Part shown: positions 4,522 to 50,256 of the stretch, one piece after another
How the letters are laid out: the number at the start of each line of letters is the position of its first letter
Numbering within the stretch: position 1 is the stretch's first letter
NCBI GenBank assembly: GCA_043567175.1
Contig: CP121323.1
Coordinates: forward strand, 1,382,813-1,446,812
DNA: 64,000 nucleotides
Direction of reading: 5' to 3'
Source: Erythrobacter sp.
GTDB taxonomy: Bacteria > Pseudomonadota > Alphaproteobacteria > Sphingomonadales > Sphingomonadaceae
Made by a program: the position numbers and the translations under genes
The notes under the pieces: generated by a model
Databases searched by the model: none
Seen by the model: only the letters and a program-made list of their open reading frames with translations
Told to the model about the DNA's origin: nothing

Positions 4522-4540
4522 TTTGCGAATGATTTGCATT
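4522..4540. promoter_or_regulatory. Fur-like iron box upstream of fbpA
   Basis: TGCGAAT-G-ATTTGCA (4524-4538) is a 7-1-7 inverted repeat with one mismatch, about 30 bp upstream of the fbpA start. Confidence 0.7.
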
Positions 4541-4613
4541 ATTATGGCGGATTGGCAAGCAAAGCCGTCTCAAGACACCGCTCTTGCCCATGCCTTTCAC
4601 GAACCGGCTTTGC

Positions 4614-5827: not shown

Positions 5828-7471
5828 ATGCCCGCACTTGGCGCCGGGGCTGCCTGGCTGGTCGCCGCGCTGGTCATCGCAGTTCTTGCCGCGGTGCCGC
5901 TGGTGGCCGTCGCCATCAATGCGCCGATGGGCGGCCTGGCGGGGCTCGCCCAGCTTTCAGGCTCGGTGCTGACCCGTTACATCCTCAACACCGCCGCGCT
6001 GATGGTGCTTACCGGAGCGCTCGCAAGCCTGATGGGCGTATCGGCGGCCTGGTTCGTGAGCGCCTGCACCTTTCCGGGCCGCCGTGTGCTTTCCTGGGCG
6101 CTGGTGCTGCCGCTGGCCGTGCCGTCCTATATTGCCGCCTATGTCTATGCCGACCTGCTCGATTTTTCGGGGCCGGTGCAAAGCGCCTTGCGCGCAGCTA
6201 CGGGCTGGGGCGTCGATGATTACAGCTTTCCGCCTGTGCGCAGCCTTGTGGGCGGGGCGATCATTCTCGCCCTCGTGCTCTACCCTTATATCTACCTGCT
6301 CGCGCGCGCTGCCTTCGCGACCCAGAGCACGGGACAGTTCCGCGCGGCGCGCAGCCTCGGCGCCCGCCCCGCCGAGGCCTTTCGCCGCATTGCCCTGCCC
6401 GCCGCACGGCCCGCAATCGCGGGAGGCCTCGCGCTGGTGCTGATGGAGGTGCTGGCGGATTTCGGCCTCGCTGAATATTTCGCCATCCCCACCTTCTCGA
6501 CCGGCATTTTCCGAAGCTGGCTGGCGATGGGCGACAAGGATGCAGCGATGGGGCTGGCTGCGCTCATGCTGTTATTCGTCGCCGGCCTGGTGGCGCTGGA
6601 GGCGAGGACCCGCAGCGGACGCAGCGAGAGCAGCGACGGATTTGCCAATGCCGCCTCGACCGAGCCGCTCGTGGCGCTTTCGCCCATGGGCCAGCTTGGC
6701 GCGCTGCTCGCCTGCACGCTGCCGGTGGCGCTCGGATTCGCGATCCCCGCGCTGCGCCTTGCGACACTGGCCTTCGAGGATGCCGCGATCCGCGCCTCGG
6801 CCGCCTTGAGCGACTATGCAGCTGCAAGCCTGTGGCTGGGTGTGGCTGTCGCGCTCACCACCACCACGCTTGCGCTGGTGCTCGCCTTTGCCAAGACGCG
6901 CAGCCCCGGTCCGCTGGTGGGAGGGATCGCGAGATTCGCAACCCTGGGTTACGCGCTGCCCGGCGCGCTGCTCGCGGTGGGCCTGCTGGCCCCGCTCGGC
7001 ACGCTCGACCAGGCCCTTACCGGACTAGCCCGATCAAGCCTTGGCTATACCGGCGGCCTGATCCTCACCGGCACCAGCATCATCCTGATATATGCGCTGG
7101 CCGTGCGGTTCCTGACGGTCGCCTATAACGCGCTGGAGGGCGGGATGGCGCGCATCCCTTCATCGCTAGACGCCGCCGCGCGCTCGCTGGGCGCAGGCCC
7201 TTCAAGAGTGCTGGCGCGCATCTACATTCCGCTGCTGCGCCCCAGCCTGCTTGCCGCCCTGGCCCTGGTCCTGATCGACACGTTGCGCGAATTGCCCGCG
7301 ACGCTGATCCTGCGTCCGTTCAACCTCGAGACGCTCGCGACGCGCACCTATCGCCTCGCCAGCGACGAGCGTTTGACCGAGGCTTCGATCCCCGCGCTGA
7401 TCCTGCTGGCAGTGGGCCTGATCCCGGTGATCATGCTGACCCGCGGCACGGCGCGACAGGACCAGAACTGA
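5828..7471 (+). CDS. fbpB: Fe(III) ABC transporter permease (two BPD_transp_1 repeats)
   Basis: Hydrophobic protein with two EAA-like loops (AARSLGA twice) and motifs LYPYIYLL and ELPATLILRPFN. Start is uncertain (5723-5828). Confidence 0.88.
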   Translation: MPALGAGAAWLVAALVIAVLAAVPLVAVAINAPMGGLAGLAQLSGSVLTRYILNTAALMVLTGALASLMGVSAAWFVSACTFPGRRVLSWALVLPLAVPSYIAAYVYADLLDFSGPVQSALRAATGWGVDDYSFPPVRSLVGGAIILALVLYPYIYLLARAAFATQSTGQFRAARSLGARPAEAFRRIALPAARPAIAGGLALVLMEVLADFGLAEYFAIPTFSTGIFRSWLAMGDKDAAMGLAALMLLFVAGLVALEARTRSGRSESSDGFANAASTEPLVALSPMGQLGALLACTLPVALGFAIPALRLATLAFEDAAIRASAALSDYAAASLWLGVAVALTTTTLALVLAFAKTRSPGPLVGGIARFATLGYALPGALLAVGLLAPLGTLDQALTGLARSSLGYTGGLILTGTSIILIYALAVRFLTVAYNALEGGMARIPSSLDAAARSLGAGPSRVLARIYIPLLRPSLLAALALVLIDTLRELPATLILRPFNLETLATRTYRLASDERLTEASIPALILLAVGLIPVIMLTRGTARQDQN

Positions 7472-10319: not shown

Positions 10320-11230
10320 GCCGGCCATTGCAATGGGACCGCGAGGGCCTGATCTGGCCTCACCGTGATGCGAGCTCCTTCTGGGAAGCTGGCAGCGCGA
10401 CCTGGCACATCCAGCGAATGGGTATTGCCGACGAAGAGGCGCGCAAACCCAGCGTCTTGCTGCTGCACGGCACGGGGGCCTCGGTCCATTCCTGGCGCTC
10501 GCTCATGCCAATGCTGGCGCGCGATTTTGCCGTCACCGCGATGGACTTGCCCCGCCACGCCTTCACCAGCGGCCACCGTGCCGAAGTCATGTCGCTGCCG
10601 CGCATGGCCGCCGAGATCGCGAGGCTCAACGCCTCGCTCGGCCTCAATCCCGATCTTGTCATCGGCCATTCCGCGGGCGCCGCGCTGGCGGTGCAGCTGG
10701 CGCTGGACCATGGCTATGCAGGTCCGATCATCGGTCTCAATTCCGCGATGCGCCCCTTCCCGGGCCCAGCAGCGCAGATCTTTCCCGCAGTCGCCAAGCT
10801 GCTGTTCATCAACCCGCTTGTGCCGCGTATCTTTTCGAAAATGACAACGTTTGGGAAGGAAGCCGAGCGCTTCCTCTATCGCTCGACCGGCTCGAAGATC
10901 GATGCCGCCGGCATGGCCTGCTACGAGACTTTGTTCGCCAATTCGCGCCACACCAAGGGCGGACTGTCGATGATGGCGAACTGGGACCTGCCAACGCTCA
11001 AGACGCGGCTCCACGAATTGCGCAATCCTCTCCTGATGGTGCATTCAACCCGGGATGCCGCCATCCCGCTTGATTGGGCGAGGGAAGTGCACGGCTGGCT
11101 GCCGGGCTCGGAACTCGAGGTTCTGGACGGGCTTGGCCACCTCGCCCACGAGGAAGATCCAGAACGCGTGCGCACCGCGATCATCCGCTATGCACAGCGC
11201 CATCATCTGGTCGCGCCGGCCGAGGCATAA
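10316..11230 (+). CDS. bchO: Alpha/beta hydrolase BchO
   Basis: LLLHGTGASVHSW, GHSAG nucleophile elbow and GHLAHEE. Directly follows bchD. Confidence 0.92.
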   Translation: MSRPLQWDREGLIWPHRDASSFWEAGSATWHIQRMGIADEEARKPSVLLLHGTGASVHSWRSLMPMLARDFAVTAMDLPRHAFTSGHRAEVMSLPRMAAEIARLNASLGLNPDLVIGHSAGAALAVQLALDHGYAGPIIGLNSAMRPFPGPAAQIFPAVAKLLFINPLVPRIFSKMTTFGKEAERFLYRSTGSKIDAAGMACYETLFANSRHTKGGLSMMANWDLPTLKTRLHELRNPLLMVHSTRDAAIPLDWAREVHGWLPGSELEVLDGLGHLAHEEDPERVRTAIIRYAQRHHLVAPAEA

Positions 11231-11501: not shown

Positions 11502-12437
11502 TCAGGGCGAATTGTCAAACGTCACCGGCAGGCTGGCGGGGTTTGATCCGGTAGCCGAGACCCATTCGAGGTCCTTGGCTTTTTTCGTCAACCTTGGCTG
11601 TGCCGCGATGACAGCCCTGATGACCTCCTCGAGGGTCAAGCGCGCAAGCCAGGCTCCAAGACAGAAATGCGCGCCCCCGCCAAAGGTCATCATCTTTGGC
11701 GCATCGGTGTCAAGGAAGCGGTCCGGCTTGAAGGCATCGGGTGTAGCCCAGAGGTGCGGGTCGCGATTGGCCGCAAAGGTCGTCAGCATCACGATCTGGC
11801 CGGCACCGATCCGCGCCCCGTGAAGGTTGAAGGCTTCAACAGCTGTTCGCGGGGCAGCCGCGATCGAGCCCTCAAGGCGGATCGTCTCGTCCACGAGAGC
11901 GGACAACCCGGCCTCTTCAATGTCCTGCAACTCGCCCCAGTCGCCGTGACGGAACAGCACGTAGAGCGAGCATCCGATCTGGCCCAGCGTGGTATCCTGC
12001 CCGGCAATCAGCAGGTTGGAGACCATGTCCACCGTCTCTTGCCGCGAAAGCCGGTCGCCCTCATGTTCGGCCTCGATCATTCTCGTGATAAGGTCGTCTG
12101 CGGGCAAGGCGGGCCTGCGCTCGACCATGTCTTCCACATATTCGCGCAGATCGTGCAGCGCGGCCGCCGCCGCGTCGATCTGCTCGGCGGTCATGAAGGC
12201 AAACACGGCCGACAGATCGGCGATCCAGTCGAAGAACTGTCCGACATCCTCCTTCGGTACACCAAGAAGCGAGCACATCACCTGCATCGGCACATCGCGC
12301 AGCGCACCGAGCAAGTCGCCGCCGCCCTGAACTTCTAGCCGAGCCAGACGGTCCGAAGCGATCAGTGCGGTTTCGGCTCTGAGCGAAGCCAATGCCTTGG
12401 GCGTGCCGGAAAATGAGCCCGCTCGCGCGTTATGCGT
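11502..12437 (-). pseudogene. Cytochrome P450, N-terminally truncated
   Basis: I-helix AGQDTT, ExxR (ETIR), PDRF and heme motif FGGGAHFCLG are present. The frame hits an upstream in-frame stop at 12438-12440, giving about 310 codons against about 400 for a typical P450. Confidence 0.75.
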
Positions 12438-12445
12438 TCAGGGTG

Positions 12446-12472
12446 CTAATGACACCCCCCTAATGACACCCC
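12446..12472 (+). repeat. Tandem direct repeat CTAATGACACCCC x2
   Basis: Exact 13-mer at 12446-12458 and 12460-12472. Confidence 0.85.
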
Positions 12473-12501
12473 TACGCAAGGCAGCCTGGAAATGCCGCCG
12501 G

Positions 12502-13368
12502 TCAGGCTCGGGCCGAAACCAGCCAGGCCTTGCAGCCCATCATGACACCCTCTTGCGGCACATGATAATGCTCGAACAGTGCCGCCAGATCGCGGCTCGC
12601 ATTCTGGCGTATCTCCTCGCTGTGTTCATCGAGGATCCGTCCGACCCCCAGCGAGGAGAGCACAAAACCGACGGCCTCGTCGGGGGTGGTCCCCGGACCG
12701 CCGATCGGCTGCTTGCCGTCATGGGCGACGACGTCGATCTGGTCGAAACCGCCGCCTGTCAGCACCTCGCCAAGATAGTCGAGGTCTTCAAAGGCGAAGG
12801 GGCCTGGCGTGCGCGGGACAGCGGGGGGCACGTCAACGTGGCGGCGCACCACACCCATCATTTCCATCATCCACAGATTGTCTCGCGGTGGCCCCCAGAC
12901 AGCAAGGTCGATCCGTGCGCCCGGCTTCAGCATGGCGTGTAGATTGGCAAAAGCGGGGATCGGATCTTCGAAGAACATCGATCCGAAGCGGGAGAAAAGC
13001 CGGTCGAACGGACCCTGCGCAAGACTTGCGGTGGCTGCATCGGCGCAGACAAAGCGCGCCTTGGCTGTCGCTTCGGCGCCTGCGCGGCACTCGGCCTCGG
13101 CGACAAGCCCGGGCGCAATGTCCAGCCCGATCGCCTCGCCACCGGGAGCGACGGCTGCCGCGATCGCGCGCGTGGTGGCGCCGCCGCCAGAGCCGACATC
13201 CAGCACCCTTTCGCCCGGCTGATATGCAGCGCGATCGAGCAAGGCGGCTCCGATCGGCGCGATCATGCTTTCGAACCTGTCGAGGTTGGCAAGCCACCTG
13301 TCGCCCATTTCGCCGCCCCAGTCCTCGCCCTTGAGGTCTTGTGAAGGTTCGGATTGCGTTGCGCTCAA
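12502..13368 (-). CDS. Class I SAM-dependent methyltransferase
   Basis: VLDVGSGGG motif I, then GLDIA, CADAA and FSRFGSMFF. Confidence 0.88.
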   Translation of the reverse strand: MSATQSEPSQDLKGEDWGGEMGDRWLANLDRFESMIAPIGAALLDRAAYQPGERVLDVGSGGGATTRAIAAAVAPGGEAIGLDIAPGLVAEAECRAGAEATAKARFVCADAATASLAQGPFDRLFSRFGSMFFEDPIPAFANLHAMLKPGARIDLAVWGPPRDNLWMMEMMGVVRRHVDVPPAVPRTPGPFAFEDLDYLGEVLTGGGFDQIDVVAHDGKQPIGGPGTTPDEAVGFVLSSLGVGRILDEHSEEIRQNASRDLAALFEHYHVPQEGVMMGCKAWLVSARA

Positions 13369-44611: not shown

Positions 44612-45669
44612 ACGCCTACAAGCCGATGACCAGCGAAGAGGCGATGGATCTCGCCACGCAGGAAACCATGCTCACCCCGCGCTTCTACACCACGGATTAC
44701 GACGCCCTCGATGCGATCGACGTCAGCCCGGTGCGCGAGGAGTGGGACGCACTGATCGAGGAAATGATCGGCGATCCCAACAAGAAGCACTTCAAGAAAG
44801 ACGACCGCTTCGACGGCGTGATCGACACGCTCCCTCCTGCGCTGCGCAAGGAATTCACCGATTTCATGGTCAGCTCAATGACCTCGGAGTTTTCCGGCTG
44901 CGTGCTCTATGCCGAGATCGCCAAGCGCACCAAGAACCCGGATGTGAAGCAATTGTTCAAGCTGCTGGCGCGCGATGAGAGCCGGCATGCCGGTTTCATC
45001 AATGAATGCCTCAAGGATGCAGGGATCGGCGTCGACCTCGGCTATCTGACGAAGACCAAGAAATACACGTATTTCCAGCCGAAATTCATCTTCTATGCGG
45101 TCTATTTGTCCGAGAAGATCGGCTATGCGCGCTACATCACGATCTTCCGCCATCTCGCGCGCAACCCGCAGCACAAGTTTCACCCGATCTTCGACTGGTT
45201 CGAGGAATGGTGCAATGACGAGTTTCGCCACGGTGAGGCGTTCGCGATGTTGATGCGGGCGGATCCCAAGCTGCTGAAAGGCCACAACAAGCTTTGGATC
45301 CGGTTCTTCCTGCTATCGGTCTACGCCACCATGTATGTACGTGATCACAACCGTCCCGCCTTTCACGAAGCGCTGGGCGTCGACCCGACCGAATATGATT
45401 ACGAGGTCTTCAGGGTCTGCAACCAGATCGCGCGGCAGGTCTATCCGGTAGAGCTCGACATCGATGACCCGGCTTTCCGGCGCCAGATGGAAGTTCTGCG
45501 CCTTGCGGCTGATCGGATCGAAGAAGGCAAGACAAAGGGCGGAATTGGCGGCCTCGCCAAGCGGGTCAGCGGTATGGTCGGTGCGGGCCTCGCCTTTGCG
45601 CGGATGTATTTCCACCGCACCAAGCCCAACGCCCTGCCTGCAACGATCCGCCTGCAACCCACATGGTAA
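44608..45669 (+). CDS. acsF: O2-dependent Mg-protoporphyrin monomethyl ester cyclase
   Basis: LTPRFYTTD and diiron motifs [20 protein letters not shown] and DEFRHGE. Confidence 0.97.
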
Positions 45670-46496
45670 GCTGGGACGGCCATATTGTCCCGTTTATCGT
45701 GACGATCATGATCTGGTTCATTGCAACCGGGCTGGTCGCATGGGCGGACAACCGCGATGCCAGGACCTTTCCCAAGAGCCTGATGATCGGCGGGATTGGT
45801 GGAATCGCCGGCCTTCTGATCATTCTGGTCGTCTCACAAAGCGTATCGGTGCTTGGCGTTTATGCAGCCTTTGTCGGCGCACTGATGGTTTGGGGCTGGC
45901 ACGAGATTGGCTTTCTCACCGGTGCCGCCGCCGGACCGCGCCGCGAACCCGCCTCACCCGGCATCACTGGCGCAAAGCGCTTCGCCGAGGCGAGCGCGAC
46001 AGTGATCCATCACGAAGTGGTACTCGCCATCACGGCGCTGGTGTTGATCTCGCTCTCCTGGAGCATGCCCAACCAGATCGGCGCGACGGTGTTCGTGCTG
46101 CTGTTTGGCATGCGGCTTTCGTCCAAGATCAACATCTTTGTCGGCGTACCCAATTCGAGTGTCGAAATGCTGCCGCCGCATCTTGAATACCTCAAGACCT
46201 ATTTCGGTCGCAATCGGATGACCTGGTTGCTTGGCGGGTCGATCATCGCGATCACTGGCGTGGCGCTCTGGTTCGGTTCGCTCGCCCTCCAGGCACCGGT
46301 TGGAAGTCCTGAAATGGTTGGCGCAAGCCTCTTGACCACACTGTGCCTTCTGGGCGCACTTGAACACGTATTTCTCGCGCTGCCGTTTCGCGATGGCATG
46401 CTGTGGGGATGGGCCTTTCGCGGGCGCGCGGTAGCGGGATCGCCAGCGCCCAGTGTATCCGCAATCAGAACGAATGTGATTGACTCCGATGACTGA
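45663..46496 (+). CDS. puhE: PuhE membrane protein (DUF3623-like)
   Basis: [33 protein letters not shown] and EHVFLALP. Confidence 0.9.
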
Positions 46497-46530
46497 AATG
46501 AAGAGCAAGGGCCCTAAGGGGGGAATGACG

Positions 46531-47754
46531 ATGGATTACGAGGGTTTTTTCGCGAGCGAGCTTGATAATGTTCGCGAAGAAGGGCGCTACCGCGTCTTCA
46601 CCGACATCAAGCGCCATCGCGGCAAGTTTCCCCACGCCACCCGTTTCCTCGACGATGAGGAAACGCAGGCCGTCACCGTCTGGTGTTCGAATGATTATCT
46701 CGGCATGGGCCAGCACCAGGTTGTGCTCGACGCCATGCACGAAGCGCTTGACGAATGCGGCGCAGGCGCAGGCGGCACGCGCAATATTTCGGGCACCAAC
46801 CACTATCACGTGGAGCTCGAATCCGAACTGGCCGACCTGCACGGCAAGGAGAGCGCCCTGCTGTTTACATCGGGATATGTCTCGAACTGGGCAGGCATCG
46901 GCACGCTGGCGGCGCGCATTCCGAACTGCGCGGTGTTTTCTGACGAATTGAACCACGCATCGATGATCGAAGGCATTCGCTATTCAAAGGCCGAACGCCG
47001 GATCTGGAACCACAACGATCCCGAGGACCTCGACCGGCATCTGAGCCAATTCGATCCCGACCGCCCCAAGCTGGTCGCGTTTGAAAGCGTCTATTCTATG
47101 GACGGCGATATCGCGCCAATCGCTGAAATTCTCGATGTATGTGAGAAGCATGGCGCTCTCAGCTATATCGACGAAGTGCACGCGGTCGGCCTGTACGGCC
47201 CGCGCGGCGGCGGCATTGCCGAGCGTGAAGGCCTGATGGACCGGATCGACGTGATCGAAGGCACGCTGGGCAAGGCCTATGGCGTGATGGGCGGCTATAT
47301 CGCGGCCTCGCGCAACCTGGTTGATTACGTCCGCAGCTTTGCGAGCGGTTTCATCTTTTCCACGGCCCTTCCCCCCGCTGTCGCGGCGGGCGCGGCAGCG
47401 AGCATCCGTCACCTCAAGGCATCGAGCGAGGAACGCGACAAACAGAAAGAGCGCGTCGCGCAAGTACGCCGCAAGCTTGACATGATGGGCATCCCGCACC
47501 TTGCCAATCCCAGCCACATCATCCCGGTGATGGTTGGCGATGCCAAGAAGTGCAAGATGATCAGCGACTGGCTGATGGACAATCACGGCATCTATGTGCA
47601 GCCGATCAACTATCCGACCGTTCCGGTGGGAACCGAGCGTCTGCGCATCACGCCCTCGCCGGTCCACAGCGACGGGGACATCGATCGCCTGATTAACGCG
47701 CTGAGTGAAATCTGGTCGCAATGCGAGCTCGCGCGGATGGCAACGGCTGCGTAA
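46531..47754 (+). CDS. hemA: 5-aminolevulinate synthase
   Basis: [27 protein letters not shown] and GTLGKAYG (PLP lysine). Start is 46525 or 46531. Confidence 0.97.
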
Positions 47755-47867
47755 TCCCCAAGATACGATGAGCGGGGGGCCTTTTTGCCCAAGGCAATCG
47801 GACCCCGCCGCTTTTCGGGTGGGGCCTTGTCAGGGCGTCAGGGCTGGTTGAATTGATTTGAAAAGGA

Positions 47868-47903
47868 GGCCCGCCCCCCCTGCTGCGGGCCAGCTCTTTT
47901 TTT
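47868..47903 (+). terminator. Possible terminator after hemA
   Basis: GGCCCGC...GCGGGCC stem followed by a T7 run. Confidence 0.5.
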
Positions 47904-47963
47904 CGGCTTTGGCCGCATGGTTTTATCGATTTAGTACCCAGAGTATGAGGAGGATAGAACGGT

Positions 47964-48467
47964 ATGCGTGCGATCATCGTAAATGCGATAGCGGCGACGA
48001 GCCTTGTGGCTTTCACAGCCTGTGGCAGCGAGCCTTCCGCCCCGGCTGGCGAAAGCGCCGGCGCCGCAGATGCAGCCGGTCAAGCTGCGCAAGCCGCTCC
48101 CGAACCCGATCCGTCGCCTGCGGTCGAGGCGACGCCGGTCGCTTTTGCCGACCTGACGGGCGATGCGTCAAAGGGGGAAAAGGTCTTCATCAGGTGCAGC
48201 ACCTGTCACGTCCTGCAGGACGGGCAGAATCGCGTCGGCCCGCACCTTTACGGGGTCGTGGGACGCCCGGCAGGCAGCGTCGATGGGTTTAACTATTCCG
48301 CCGCGAACGCCGAGAGCGGCATCACCTGGACCCCTGAGATACTCTTCGACTATCTTGAGTCGCCGCAAACCTATCTCAAGGGTACCCGAATGGCTTTTCC
48401 GGGGATCAAGGACCCGCAGGAGCGGGCTGACCTGATCGCCTATCTGCAAGCCAATGGCGAGGTCTGA
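47964..48467 (+). CDS. cycA: Cytochrome c2-family protein with a lipoprotein signal and low-complexity linker
   Basis: CSTCH heme motif, GPHLYGVVGRPAG and axial Met in GTRMAFPG. Lipobox-like AFTAC. Confidence 0.9.
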   Translation: MRAIIVNAIAATSLVAFTACGSEPSAPAGESAGAADAAGQAAQAAPEPDPSPAVEATPVAFADLTGDASKGEKVFIRCSTCHVLQDGQNRVGPHLYGVVGRPAGSVDGFNYSAANAESGITWTPEILFDYLESPQTYLKGTRMAFPGIKDPQERADLIAYLQANGEV

Positions 48468-48554: not shown

Positions 48555-48569
48555 ACACACACACACACA
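48555..48569 (+). repeat. (AC)7 microsatellite
   Basis: ACACACACACACACA. Confidence 0.9.
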
Positions 48570-48612
48570 AGAAAAAGGGCGGCGTGGCATCCCACACCGC
48601 CCCTTCTTTTTT
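48569..48612. terminator. Bidirectional terminator between convergent cycA and pseudoazurin genes
   Basis: An A-rich run, then a GGGCGGCGTGG/CCACACCGCCC stem, then a T-rich run. Confidence 0.8.
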
Positions 48613-48628: not shown

Positions 48629-49207
48629 TTAGAGGCCGGCTTCTTCGAAGATTTCGCCGAACACGCGGCCCGCGAGGCCCGGGTGGCTCACGGCCTTCGC
48701 CGCTTCGACGTTATCACCGCCTTCAACGACGACCAGGCCGACCATGCCGGCAGCATAGTGCGGAACGCACTTGTAGCCGTAAACGCCCGCCTTCGGCACC
48801 ACATAGGTGACGCCCTGATTGATCTTGCCTTCCCAACCTTCGACGCCTTCAGGCAGCATCCCCGGGATCGACGAGGACTGGTGCGTCGGGTCGGTGGGAA
48901 CGAATTCGATCGTGTCGCCAACATTGGCGGTCACAAGGCGCGGCTTGAAGACCTGCAGCTTGCTCGAATCATCCGGATCCTTGGTATACATCTCGATTTC
49001 GATGACCGTGCCGTTGGCGTCGACCGACGGAGCCGGCTCGGCAGCCTCTTCGGCTGGCGCTTCTTCAGCCATCGGCTCTTCAGCCGGGGCCGCCGCTTCT
49101 TCGGTGGTGGCTTCGGCTTCTTCAGCCGGAGCGGCACCGCCGCCGCATGCGGTCAAAGTGGCAAGGCTGGCAAAAGCAGCTGCGCCCAGAATTACATTAC
49201 GCTTCAT
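48629..49207 (-). CDS. Pseudoazurin-like blue copper lipoprotein
   Basis: Lipobox LTAC and an A/E/P linker. VFKP..V.A.VGDTIEFVPTD..H, with the type-1 Cu loop YKCVPHYAAGM. Confidence 0.88.
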   Translation of the reverse strand: MKRNVILGAAAFASLATLTACGGGAAPAEEAEATTEEAAAPAEEPMAEEAPAEEAAEPAPSVDANGTVIEIEMYTKDPDDSSKLQVFKPRLVTANVGDTIEFVPTDPTHQSSSIPGMLPEGVEGWEGKINQGVTYVVPKAGVYGYKCVPHYAAGMVGLVVVEGGDNVEAAKAVSHPGLAGRVFGEIFEEAGL

Positions 49208-49461
49208 GTGTATCTTCCCTCTGAAAACTTACATCCTCCCGTAGGGCACAAGGCCATAGACCAGATGGATTGCGATGAAAAGCTTCCATCAGTTCACTGT
49301 CTCCATCGAGTTTCCGGCCCGGAATGCCCGCCGGGATGCACTCTCTGTTCAAAATCCTGCGCACGGCAAGAGTTCCCGGACAATTCCTGAAATGGGGCCC
49401 TGCCCGGACGAAGTATCCCACACAGTTGCGCTTGCGGGGCTGCACGCTATGAACGCGCATC

Positions 49462-50256
49462 ATGAATAACAAAGCACCCTGGCACGCCCGCCTCGCCCGC
49501 ATTCTTGCGATCATCCTGCCCCTCTTTCTGCTGGTCGCTGCACTGGGCACCAAATTCGGCCTGTGGGGCTGGCAAGTGGGACTGAGCGCCTTCGGCCTTG
49601 GCGGGCTGGTCCTGATCGGTCTGACCGCCGTGATCGCGCTTGTCTCGATTGTGCTGATCCTGCGCTCGGGCAGCCGGCTGGGGCTTGTCTCGTCGGCATT
49701 CGCACTTGTTGTCGCGCTCGGCTTTACCGGGCTGTTCGCGCCGGTCATGCTGGGCGCGGGCAACCACCCGATCCACGACATGGCGACCGACACCGCGAAC
49801 CCGCCCGCCTTTTCGCCGGAAATCCTCGCGATGCGCGCCGAAGCCGGCGCCAACCCTCTCAACGCCTACGATATGCCGCTGGGCGAGACCGAGCAGTTTG
49901 CCGGGACCGAGCCGCCGCTCTCGGGCATGACCACGGCGGATATCATCGCCGAGAAATATCCCGAGCTCGAACCGCTCGAAATCGGGGAAACGGGCGAGAA
50001 CGAAGCGGTCAACGCGATCCAGCTGGCAATGGCAGACATGGGCTTCACCAATATCCGCTACAATCCTGAGGCCGGCACGGTCGAAGGCGTCGCGGAGACC
50101 TTCTGGTTCGGCTTCAAGGATGATGTGGTCGCGCGCGTTTCCGAAGGTTGGGTCGATTTCCGCTCGGTAAGCCGGGTGGGGCAGAGTGACCTGGGCGCCA
50201 ACGCGAAGCGGATCGTGGAACTGCGCGAGCGCACCGCCGGGAAACTGGGCCTTTAG
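49462..50256 (+). CDS. DUF1499-like membrane protein
   Basis: N-terminal TM segments, then PIHDMATD...PP.F and FWFGFKDDVVARV...DFRSVSRVG.SDLGANAKRI. Confidence 0.82.
   Translation: MNNKAPWHARLARILAIILPLFLLVAALGTKFGLWGWQVGLSAFGLGGLVLIGLTAVIALVSIVLILRSGSRLGLVSSAFALVVALGFTGLFAPVMLGAGNHPIHDMATDTANPPAFSPEILAMRAEAGANPLNAYDMPLGETEQFAGTEPPLSGMTTADIIAEKYPELEPLEIGETGENEAVNAIQLAMADMGFTNIRYNPEAGTVEGVAETFWFGFKDDVVARVSEGWVDFRSVSRVGQSDLGANAKRIVELRERTAGKLGL

Follow-up and report, generated by a model that had tools for sequence, protein, structure and literature searches.

A lipid-tethered pseudoazurin at the edge of the Erythrobacter photosynthesis gene cluster: a candidate copper donor alternating with cytochrome c2

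Reaction centers (RCs) of the purple-bacterial type receive electrons from cytochromes (c2, cy, c8 or the tetraheme PufC) or from HiPIP; a blue copper protein is an accepted donor to photosystem I, and in Chloroflexota such a donor is under debate. Plastocyanin and cytochrome c6 of cyanobacteria and algae are both soluble and serve photosystem I under a copper-dependent reciprocal regulation. A transmembrane helix serves as the anchor of cytochrome cy. In Neisseria, a non-phototroph, the protein Laz possesses an azurin-type domain, an AAEAP-type linker and an outer membrane anchor, and functions in respiration and peroxide defense. With Cu(II) bound, pseudoazurins show a blue spectrum, and their midpoint potential lies at about +230 to +280 mV. 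Auracyanin of Chloroflexus and Roseiflexus, a blue copper protein anchored in the membrane, has long been put forward as the periplasmic donor to a type II RC; this role is debated, and a 2023 study assigns it in Roseiflexus to a cytochrome c551 (PMC10873879). Regarding pseudoazurin in connection with photosynthesis gene clusters (PGCs), the RC, aerobic anoxygenic phototrophy or lipoproteins, the literature searched offers passing mention only; one genome comparison (PMC4919336) touches on the gene in a brief remark and annotates it in a supplementary table. A review from 2025 that covers the photosynthetic apparatus in aerobic anoxygenic phototrophs makes no mention of copper. Such genes are currently annotated as 'plastocyanin/azurin family protein' and treated as lying outside the PGC.

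We analyzed a 64-kb stretch of Erythrobacter DNA, hereafter the window. It harbors a PGC running from bchI to hemA (7555–47754; bchIDO, crtD, puf and bch genes, puhE and hemA), the flanks of which were annotated by Pfam and NCBIfam. Of the PGC itself, the left part up to crtD and the segment from puhE to hemA were annotated directly, and the other genes via homologs in PGC-bearing loci. The gene order parallels the published gene table of NAP1 (PMC4919336); the window contains an Erythrobacter-type PGC with a pseudoazurin gene at its hemA end. There is no pufC in the 64 kb, which hold a single credible CxxCH open reading frame (ORF), and pufC is missing in six out of seven phototrophic Erythrobacter genomes in an earlier comparison (PMC4919336). 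Given that pufC is absent, the photo-oxidized special pair (P+) must be reduced directly by a mobile or tethered carrier.

Two genes for small redox proteins lie beyond hemA, which encodes 5-aminolevulinate synthase (46480–47754, forward strand) and, as indicated by a comparison of hemA-end neighbors in related loci, is the last gene of the PGC. The first is cycA (47964–48467, forward strand), assigned from the ORF list and Pfam to a lipoprotein cytochrome c2 with the lipobox FTAC, an Ala/Pro-rich linker, a CSTCH heme site and Met143; it is a class I cytochrome c with a GTRM motif. The second is the pseudoazurin gene (48629–49207, reverse strand), which forms its own transcription unit and converges on hemA. 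Between them, a hairpin (48572–48607) bordered by an A-run and, on its opposite side, a T-run folds with −26 kcal/mol (z −4.0) on the forward strand and −33 kcal/mol (z −5.1) on the reverse strand. This stable fold on both strands bears out the bidirectional intrinsic terminator that the sequence-only reading had described as common to the two genes.

The ORF list, Pfam, a PDB match and an alignment of homologs all support a complete pseudoazurin coding sequence of 192 residues plus a stop codon, with AGGGAAG located 7 nt upstream of the ATG start. A codon-by-codon check of the signal peptide (residues 1–20) and lipobox L18-T-A-C21 (49145–49207, reverse strand) confirmed the LTAC motif proposed earlier. 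The signal peptide reads MKRNVILGAAAFASLATLTA and is directly followed by the predicted lipidation site Cys21 (49145–49147), in agreement with the pattern [LVI][ASTVI][GAS]C; the alignment revealed that the lipobox is kept in nearly all homologs of the clade and its sister clades. The Gly at position +2 after this cysteine would place the protein in the outer membrane by the Lol rules of E. coli, which may not be those of Sphingomonadales. Residues 22–62 (49022–49144, reverse strand), with the sequence GGGAAPAEEAEATTEEAAAPAEEPMAEEAPAEEAAEPAPSV, constitute a 41-residue acidic Ala/Pro/Glu tether that contains 12 Glu and neither Lys, Arg nor Asp, and is predicted to be disordered; composition, the AlphaFold2 (AF2) model and Tandem Repeats Finder (TRF) were used in its assignment. 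In the AF2 model, pLDDT is below 50 for residues 11–54 and above 90 for residues 61–192. Across 21 homologs, the linker spans 34–47 residues with a net charge of −7 to −16. Concerning the tether of about 40 residues with 'AAPAEE-like repeats' in the sequence-only reading, the composition stands and a clean repeat does not: the sole repeat reported by TRF is a weak 21-nt unit of 2.5 copies with 65% match.

The lipobox and linker of the window's cytochrome c2 confirmed that both carriers share the same lipid–linker–redox design. Such a design is predicted to be that of the tethered donors of the cytochrome cy class. Like Rhodobacter capsulatus cytochrome cy and the local c2, the pseudoazurin combines a membrane anchor (here a predicted lipidated cysteine), a long flexible Ala/Pro-rich linker and a small redox domain, and its proposed job, from bc1 to the RC and oxidase, is the same; in contrast, its cofactor is copper rather than heme and its fold is unrelated. 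Neisseria Laz resembles it in having a lipobox and an Ala/Glu/Pro-rich linker before a cupredoxin domain.

The tether is followed by the pseudoazurin (cupredoxin) domain with two C-terminal helices (48632–49021, reverse strand), as judged from the PDB match, alignment, AF2 and Foldseek. The Cu ligands are His109 (48881–48883), Cys147 (48767–48769), His150 (48758–48760) and Met155 (48743–48745), all on the reverse strand, in a C-x2-H-x4-M pattern. All four are invariant among 23 homologs, and the intact type-1 copper site noted earlier is therefore upheld. The subfamily can be recognized by the motifs PTDP[ST]HQSSS and CVPHYA[AG]GM. The ORF matches PDB 3tu6 with an E-value of 1.9e-25. In the AF2 model the eight-stranded cupredoxin sandwich is followed by helices at residues 167–171 and 178–189, which is the pseudoazurin fold. 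The best 27 Foldseek matches are all pseudoazurins, with target-normalized TM-scores of 0.89–0.95 and rmsd of 1.1–1.9 Å; plastocyanins match weakly (target-normalized TM-score 0.67–0.75), and no auracyanin is found among the best 50 structural matches. The Pfam PF00127 score (42.4) is above its cut-off of 21.2, and the score for the NCBIfam pseudoazurin equivalog TIGR02375 (104.6) is just under the cut-off of 109.85, which a sister-clade protein (L050) exceeds with 111.8. The dN/dS of the domain is 0.09–0.23 against 14 relatives, demonstrating that the domain is under purifying selection.

Compared to the solved pseudoazurins of Achromobacter cycloclastes, Alcaligenes faecalis, Paracoccus pantotrophus and Sinorhizobium meliloti (3tu6), with which it shares 33%–41% identity, the domain is alike in fold, the two C-terminal helices, the ligand set and the C-x2-H-x4-M loop. 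Differently, it is part of a lipoprotein with a 41-residue acidic tether, and its genomic linkage is to a PGC instead of nir or nos genes. The solved proteins have chains of 122–127 residues, 9–13 Lys and a net charge of −3 to +3 over the aligned spans, against −8 for the domain here and −6 to −16 in its homologs. Moreover, the basic docking residues that surround the hydrophobic patch in the denitrification-type pseudoazurins, donors to NirK, cd1 or N2OR, are not retained: Lys38 is replaced by Pro/Thr (PTDKGHN becomes PTDPTHQ) and Lys57 by Glu (FKSKIN becomes WEGKIN or WEGEIN). An acidic pseudoazurin domain might dock poorly if the RC surface is acidic; the local c2 domain is acidic too, with a net charge of −4.

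A classical pseudoazurin would donate to a copper nitrite reductase, N2O reductase, cytochrome c peroxidase or periplasmic dehydrogenase encoded elsewhere, and would merely hitchhike with the PGC. The close relatives with solved structures all function as such carriers, and the inspection covered about 20 kb around each copy, so partner genes may sit elsewhere. Nevertheless, we consider such a role improbable. The window contains neither nirK nor nos, as the sequence-only reading had noted, and the association with nir/nos that would have pointed to denitrification does not appear in related loci, where no nir, nos, ccp or cox/oxidase gene was found in the annotated flanks. A literature search for nirK in Erythrobacter genomes gave no usable result. 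The altered Lys38 and Lys57 positions in a strongly acidic domain and the score just under the equivalog cut-off also argue against it, as do the synteny kept on the PGC side while the outer side varies and the positional alternation with c2, both described below.

A genome scan gave 67 loci. In 46 of these, the pseudoazurin gene is located at the hemA end of hemA–puhE–acsF, either directly beside hemA or with only a tethered c2 between. The same placement in three further isolates (Sphingomicrobium sediminis, E. insulae and Erythrobacter sp. THAF29) brings the total to 49 related loci, in at least four outer contexts. The outer flank carries DUF1499 in most of them, as in the window, where the DUF1499 gene (49462–50256, forward strand) is divergent from the pseudoazurin gene and represents the commonest chromosomal context. 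It is replaced by DUF3422 with unrelated genes beyond in L037, L048, L068 and L049, by GH97/amylase/MFS genes in L015 and L031, and by a 2Fe-2S subunit in L025, whereas L014, L030 and L044 have a TonB-receptor/phosphatase/phytase insertion. Locus L048 is strain AP23, the PGC of which was considered a horizontal acquisition, since the closely related LAMA 915 lacks one (PMC4919336). A second arrangement is seen in the sister-clade loci L050, L071 and L072, in which the tethered pseudoazurin gene lies directly upstream of, and co-directional with, bchI–bchD–bchO.

Within the clade, all but one of the loci with enough flank are at a PGC end. In L039, a single metagenome-assembled genome (MAG), an intact and selected pseudoazurin gene is joined directly to the iron ABC permease and the PGC is absent, which suggests either that the protein is of some use without phototrophy or that the PGC was lost recently. 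Sister-clade copies L047/L073, L052–L058 and L064 have no PGC genes within 10 kb, and the sister-clade flanks show no recurrent redox partner; HflK/C, a fatty-acid desaturase, ChuX, an AMP-binding enzyme and urate-pathway genes are found instead. The co-occurrence with PGCs expected from the sequence-only reading is found at the 49 loci described above. As for equal presence in non-phototrophs, which would have spoken against that reading, no named non-phototroph was seen among the named hits; L039 and the sister-clade copies just listed have no PGC nearby. Because of these copies, we regard the link between tethered pseudoazurin and phototrophy as strong but not exclusive.

Physical linkage alone would yield co-inheritance of the pseudoazurin gene with the PGC. 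Simple hitchhiking was rejected in view of the adjacency across different outer flanks, the second arrangement at the bchI end and the purifying selection. Co-inheritance by linkage would also account for a passenger without present electron-transfer function, such as a copper buffer or a decaying gene. We hold this to be very improbable, given the low dN/dS and invariant ligands, the conserved lipobox and linker composition, the related sequences in metatranscriptome assemblies and the PGC association in two different arrangements.

Comparison of the loci revealed that the copper and heme carriers replace one another across genomes at the same position. Tethered c2 stands there alone in E. 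longus DSM 6997 (L075), NAP1, L077, Altererythrobacter (L074) and strain BO-6 (L076), two Altererythrobacter being among the relatives in this state. Both carriers, in either order and orientation, are present in the window, L001, L027, L028, L045, L049, L078, E. litoralis DSM 8509 and JL475. Pseudoazurin alone occupies the position in about 40 loci, and the cultured strains YT30, E. rubeus and E. insulae are pseudoazurin-only. The c2 copies with readable N-termini are all lipoproteins with Ala/Pro/Glu linkers, and all five tethered c2 relatives looked up are at a PGC edge. This pattern is reminiscent of plastocyanin and cytochrome c6, in which a cupredoxin and a class I cytochrome c are apparently interchangeable RC donors and genomes carry one, the other or both; the carriers here differ in being tethered and in being associated with a type II RC.

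It is also conceivable that the protein is a general respiratory carrier only, passing electrons from bc1 to aa3/cbb3 oxidases or to a periplasmic peroxidase, and that it sits by the PGC only because the cell's general tethered c-type carrier is encoded there too. These bacteria are obligate aerobes in which the path from bc1 to oxidase is always running, and cytochrome cy of R. capsulatus serves both the RC and the cbb3 oxidase. The retention of the gene in L039, the several sister-clade members away from a PGC, and the pseudoazurin gene's own promoter with no PpsR site would fit such a role. On the other hand, a carrier with a respiratory role alone should also occur in the many non-phototrophic Erythrobacteraceae, whereas the named hits include no named non-phototroph; the clade loci with enough flank, bar one, keep to a PGC end in several contexts, including that of a horizontally acquired PGC; and the tethered c2 relatives looked up lie at the PGC edge as well. 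We thus find an exclusively respiratory role rather unlikely. It overlaps with the function in photosynthetic electron return that we favor, and a dual role is likely.

Upstream of the pseudoazurin gene, an alignment of 28 upstream regions identified a promoter-like conserved element, GCTTTTCATCGCAATCCATCTGGTCTAT (49256–49283, reverse strand), 49–76 nt before the ATG, within the 255-bp divergent intergenic region common to the pseudoazurin and DUF1499 genes. Neither PpsR-type TGT-N12-ACA nor FNR-type TTGA-N6-TCAA sites occur in the 52 upstream regions scanned, and control of pseudoazurin by PpsR or FNR was rejected for want of a matching site. Over the whole window, TGT-N12-ACA is found 6 times against 4.9 expected, namely at chance frequency; two intergenic sites inside the PGC (15933 and 17184) suggest that this type of motif is in use. 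A promoter common to c2 and pseudoazurin was also considered and rejected: by eye, the upstream region of E. longus c2 is similar to the promoter-like element of the pseudoazurin gene, but MAFFT did not align the two. The sequence-only reading had further invoked a Fur-boxed iron transporter at the other PGC edge. The 19-mer Fur consensus is matched best at 4525 (14/19), and 4 of 20 shuffled sequences scored as high; the box is no better than chance and was dropped as evidence, and the iron ABC transporter is merely a conserved chromosomal neighbor. Any control by copper or iron, such as a reciprocal regulation like that of plastocyanin and c6, would be conjectural. Among expression data, related pseudoazurin sequences turned up in metatranscriptome assemblies only, and in run X3 the contig depth is 14–33 for the pseudoazurin gene against 0–3 for c2, in a mixture of many organisms that possibly includes DNA; these data lend weak support to transcription of the gene.

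The above features enable us to propose a putative model, which we consider probable, although by no means certain, from genomic evidence. The pseudoazurin would be a periplasmic type-1 copper carrier that an N-terminal lipid and a flexible, acidic linker of some 40 residues hold on a membrane, and would belong functionally to the PGC. Initially, it would take electrons from cytochrome bc1. Afterwards, it would return them to the photo-oxidized special pair in an RC lacking the tetraheme PufC subunit. The lipid-tethered c2 of the same position would be interchangeable with it in this role, and terminal oxidases may also be fed, as they are by cytochrome cy in Rhodobacter. We infer these redox partners, the direction of electron flow and the anchoring membrane alongside what was observed directly, that is, the architecture, ligands, fold and selection of the protein, its linkage to PGCs and alternation with c2, and neighborhoods with no pufC, nir or nos. 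Accordingly, the core of the sequence-only reading, a copper alternative to c2 for the RC or oxidase, agrees with the genomic pattern and passes each of the sequence-based checks proposed with it; its Fur-box argument failed, and the tie to phototrophy is not exclusive. The model resembles that long proposed for auracyanin; that protein comes from another phylum and another cupredoxin subfamily, and its partner is alternative complex III rather than bc1.

In summary, this study describes a PGC-linked pseudoazurin that is anchored by a predicted lipid and alternates with a tethered cytochrome c2. We tentatively suggest, as a prospect a little short of even, that Erythrobacter and its relatives, a large assemblage of aerobic anoxygenic phototrophs from marine and saline habitats, run cyclic electron flow through a lipid-tethered copper protein rather than c2; it would be the first copper donor to a proteobacterial type II RC and would make phototrophy copper-dependent in the many pseudoazurin-only genomes. 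The idea is directly testable, since several carrier states exist in cultured strains. If true, a PGC-linked copper carrier in Proteobacteria would represent a third cofactor class for electron return to type II RCs and would account for the re-reduction of PufC-less Erythrobacter RCs where the genome has no c2 at the edge of the PGC. The light-energy gain of an abundant group of ocean photoheterotrophs would then be tied to copper, and a small demand for heme iron would be relieved.

Sequence analysis revealed that the pseudoazurin gene (48629-49207, minus strand) encodes 192 residues starting with MKRNVILGAAAFASLATLTAC, in which a short basic stretch and a hydrophobic core precede the lipobox L-T-A-C (Cys21 at 49145-49147, minus strand; Gly at position +2). 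The following residues 22-62, GGGAAPAEEAEATTEEAAAPAEEPMAEEAPAEEAAEPAPSV, include 12 Glu but lack Lys, Arg and Asp altogether. In the tether DNA, Tandem Repeats Finder detected a weak 21-nt periodicity (2.5 copies, 65% match); thus, of the acidic repeats described in the sequence-only reading, the Ala/Pro/Glu-type composition stands, but a clean repeat does not. In an AlphaFold2 model built on an alignment of 23 homologues, residues 11-54 have pLDDT values below 50, and those from residue 61 onwards exceed 90. The C-terminal 130 residues match solved pseudoazurins, best that of Sinorhizobium meliloti (3tu6, E 1.9e-25), and superposition of the model on 27 pseudoazurin entries gave TM-scores of 0.89-0.95 (normalised to the target) at an rmsd of 1.1-1.9 Å. 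The superposition takes in both C-terminal helices, and plastocyanins rank far below as structural matches. The ligand positions His109, Cys147, His150 and Met155 are invariant across the homologue alignment. The protein passes the Pfam PF00127 threshold and narrowly misses the NCBIfam pseudoazurin equivalog cut-off (104.6 vs 109.85), which accounts for the bare name 'plastocyanin/azurin family protein' that many relatives carry. The dN/dS of the domain against 14 relatives is 0.09-0.23, rough values given near-saturated synonymous sites, and indicates purifying selection.

The gene adjoins a complete Erythrobacter-type photosynthesis gene cluster (PGC), identified by gene annotation, homology to PGC-bearing loci and a gene order parallel to the NAP1 table, which runs from bchI (7555) through bchD, bchO and crtD to puhE (45663-46496) and terminates with hemA (46480-47754). 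Its left flank encodes a ferredoxin-NADP reductase and an ABC transporter, the NAP1 orthologues of which carry a ferric-iron transporter annotation; the right flank encodes a DUF1499 protein, a CDP-alcohol phosphatidyltransferase, a nucleoside transporter and efflux components. Inside the cluster, a cytochrome P450-like ORF and a SAM methyltransferase follow bchO beside carotenoid genes (11502-13368, minus strand), and a P450 also adjoins bchO and crtB in the related loci L071 and L072.

Between hemA and the pseudoazurin gene, cycA (47964-48467, plus strand) encodes a class I cytochrome c whose haem site reads CSTCH and which has Met143; its N-terminus likewise has a lipobox (FTAC), with an Ala/Pro-rich linker behind it. 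The two carrier genes are convergent and meet at a hairpin (48572-48607) set between an A-run and a T-run, with folding energies of -26 kcal/mol (plus strand) and -33 kcal/mol (minus strand), respectively 4 and 5 standard deviations under shuffled sequence. Accordingly, the sequence-only reading had correctly recognised the lipobox, the acidic tether of about 40 residues, the intact copper ligands, the tethered c2 neighbour and the common terminator. An (AC)7.5 dinucleotide repeat (48555-48569) lies directly 5' of the hairpin, downstream of the cycA stop codon. In the hemA-cycA gap, two G+C-rich inverted repeats, each followed by a T-run (47790-47905), leave only about 60 nt upstream of cycA for a promoter of its own. 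Since cycA is the only credible CxxCH-containing ORF, the tetrahaem subunit gene pufC is absent from the window, in agreement with its absence from 6 of 7 Erythrobacter phototroph genomes compared (PMC4919336). Given a reaction centre (RC) without PufC, the photo-oxidised special pair (P+) must be reduced directly by a mobile or tethered carrier.

The relatives found by protein search share 55-100% identity, the named ones coming from Erythrobacter, Qipengyuania and Sphingomicrobium. Scanning one genome per GTDB species yielded 67 homologue loci, a pattern-based and incomplete set that missed several named genomes of the protein search; the window proteins were compared with all of them within ±10 kb of each homologue. 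The co-occurrence with PGCs asked of the gene was seen: in 46 of the 67 loci it sits at the hemA end of hemA-puhE-acsF-puhCBA, adjoining hemA or separated from it by a tethered c2 alone. The same arrangement is found in three further isolates (Sphingomicrobium sediminis, E. insulae and Erythrobacter sp. THAF29), and two contigs of the scan end before the PGC side can be judged. Many loci are closely related and thus not independent observations; what counts as independent evidence is that the outer contexts are distinct, that a second arrangement exists at the bchI end and that c2 can take the place of the pseudoazurin gene beside hemA.

This adjacency might be merely inherited synteny, but three findings argue otherwise: a varied outer flank, the bchI-end arrangement and the purifying selection on the domain. 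While the hemA side stays constant, the outer flank is DUF1499 in most loci, a DUF3422 gene with unrelated genes further out in four (L037 8475-9761; L048 8355-9770; L068 6638-7900; L049 10701-12011), GH97, amylase and MFS genes in two (L015, L031) and a 2Fe-2S subunit in L025, with an inserted TonB-receptor/phosphatase/phytase block in L014, L030 and L044. The DUF3422 gene may also travel with the PGC. In addition, L037 (10517-10732, minus strand) and L068 (8647-8868, minus strand) carry an ORF of 71-73 residues between the pseudoazurin gene and hemA, with no Pfam match and no similarity to c2. L048 is strain AP23, whose PGC was judged horizontally acquired, given that LAMA 915, closely related to it at 99.5% 16S identity, lacks a PGC (PMC4919336); the pseudoazurin gene at its edge thus appears to have moved along with the cluster. 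Sister-clade tethered pseudoazurins (L050, L071, L072) occupy the other PGC end, directly upstream of and co-directional with bchI-bchD-bchO. Other sister-clade members (L053 9416-10423, L057 9272-10399, L058 9476-10402) have acidic Ala/Glu/Val/Asp linkers of about 150-250 residues, and the metagenome-assembled genome JBCCTF holds a soluble copy (L056) together with the tethered one (L058). The hemA-edge copies group as a single clade in a neighbour-joining tree of the domains, with L039 nested inside. In L039 (4986-7298), a metagenome-assembled contig, the whole PGC is absent from the site and the intact pseudoazurin gene is joined across a 10-bp gap to the iron ABC permease, which lies on the far side of the PGC in the window; the nested position fits a loss of the PGC with the pseudoazurin gene kept. 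The L039 protein has a less acidic linker and a long branch.

Comparison of the position beside hemA revealed an exchange of cofactors. In cultured phototrophs, the stretch from hemA to the DUF1499 gene contains 'cytochrome c2' alone in E. longus DSM 6997 and NAP1, and both c2 and pseudoazurin in E. litoralis DSM 8509 and JL475, in reversed order between the two (PMC4919336, supplementary gene tables). We confirmed the c2-only state of E. longus directly (L075) and found it in an uncultured Erythrobacter (L077) and two Altererythrobacter genomes with differing outer flanks (L074, L076). Both carriers occur in six scanned loci (L001, L007, L027, L028, L045, L049), pseudoazurin without c2 in about forty, and L078 has the two genes in tandem. 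The c2 copies with readable N-termini all display a lipobox and an Ala/Pro/Glu linker; the L007 copy (10653-10985) lacks both a lipobox and an in-frame start codon ahead of its linker and may be a pseudogene or an assembly error. Judged from these sequences, the hemA neighbour at the PGC edge is always a predicted lipid-tethered periplasmic one-electron carrier, its cofactor being haem or copper depending on the lineage, with a minority having both. Because either carrier fills this position, the two probably do the same job, position sharing being the strongest evidence; the c2-only, pseudoazurin-only and both-carrier states support the proposal of a copper counterpart to the tethered c2.

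A denitrification-type role was also considered. No nirK or nos gene is present in the window, and the nir/nos association was not seen elsewhere either, as the annotated flanks (±10 kb) of the compared loci contain no nir, nos or oxidase genes. Pseudoazurin docks onto nitrite reductase via a ring of lysines. Two lysines conserved in the aligned solved pseudoazurins are replaced in this family (PTDKGHN to PTDPTHQ; FKSKIN to WEGKIN or WEGEIN), and the domain net charge is -6 to -16, versus -3 to +3 over the same span in the solved proteins; the local c2 domain is acidic too (-4). A nir/nos-type role is thus probably not that of the tethered protein.

The pseudoazurin gene has a 255-bp upstream region of its own, common to the divergent DUF1499 gene. 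Alignment of 28 upstream regions revealed a conserved promoter-like element, GCTTTCAAT, about 12 nt and then CTGGTyTAtG (49256-49283, minus strand, in the window), and at many loci the 5' leader then contains a short inverted repeat, CCCGC...GCGGG (window span 49215-49283, minus strand). Judged by eye, a comparable element, GCTTTTCGTTGCAC...CTGTCTCGA, belongs to the E. longus c2 gene (L075, about 5935-5965), a likeness hinting that either carrier may be driven by the same promoter. No PpsR-type or FNR-type palindromes were found in 52 upstream regions scanned; PpsR-like sites are present at intergenic positions inside the PGC. A Fur-boxed iron transporter had been adduced in favour of a copper/iron swap. 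The best Fur-consensus match (14/19, 4525-4543) lies close to where the iron-binding-protein gene probably starts; shuffled sequence reaches the same top score, and we dropped this statistically unsupported argument; the iron transporter is simply a conserved neighbour in this chromosomal context. Related sequences in metatranscriptome assemblies are weak evidence of transcription in nature.

Altogether, the gene product is a lipoprotein targeted by the Sec route and a lipobox, in which a disordered acidic tether of about 40 residues carries a pseudoazurin domain with all its copper ligands. The gene is under selection and linked to the PGC; it is positionally interchangeable with the tethered c2 and accompanies an RC without PufC. 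These features enable us to propose a putative model. After lipidation, the domain would be held in the periplasm on a leash, which fully extended would span roughly 13-15 nm, so that the domain could reach both cytochrome c1 and P+. It would be reduced by cytochrome c1 of the bc1 complex and in turn reduce P+ at the periplasmic face of RC-LH1, and would probably also feed terminal oxidases in the manner of Rhodobacter capsulatus cytochrome cy. Pseudoazurin potentials, typically about +230 to +280 mV, are close to that of cytochrome c1 and far lower than the P/P+ potential of about +450 to +500 mV, making this path feasible. We therefore moderately favour a PGC-linked tethered copper carrier, interchangeable with c2, that re-reduces the PufC-less RC.

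The protein shares fold and ligands with pseudoazurin, of which it represents a divergent, tethered and acidic subfamily. Its proposed mode of working is reminiscent of cytochrome cy and the local lipoprotein c2, and at the gene-content level the pair resembles plastocyanin and cytochrome c6. It has the architecture of Neisseria Laz and the proposed role of auracyanin but belongs to neither family. In the literature searched, the gene appears only in PMC4919336, in supplementary-table rows and one passing remark ('an inserted gene ... the pseudoazurin gene'), and a copper donor for a proteobacterial RC is nowhere proposed. If true, the donor role would thus be new, within that literature, as one filled by a copper protein for the proteobacterial RC.
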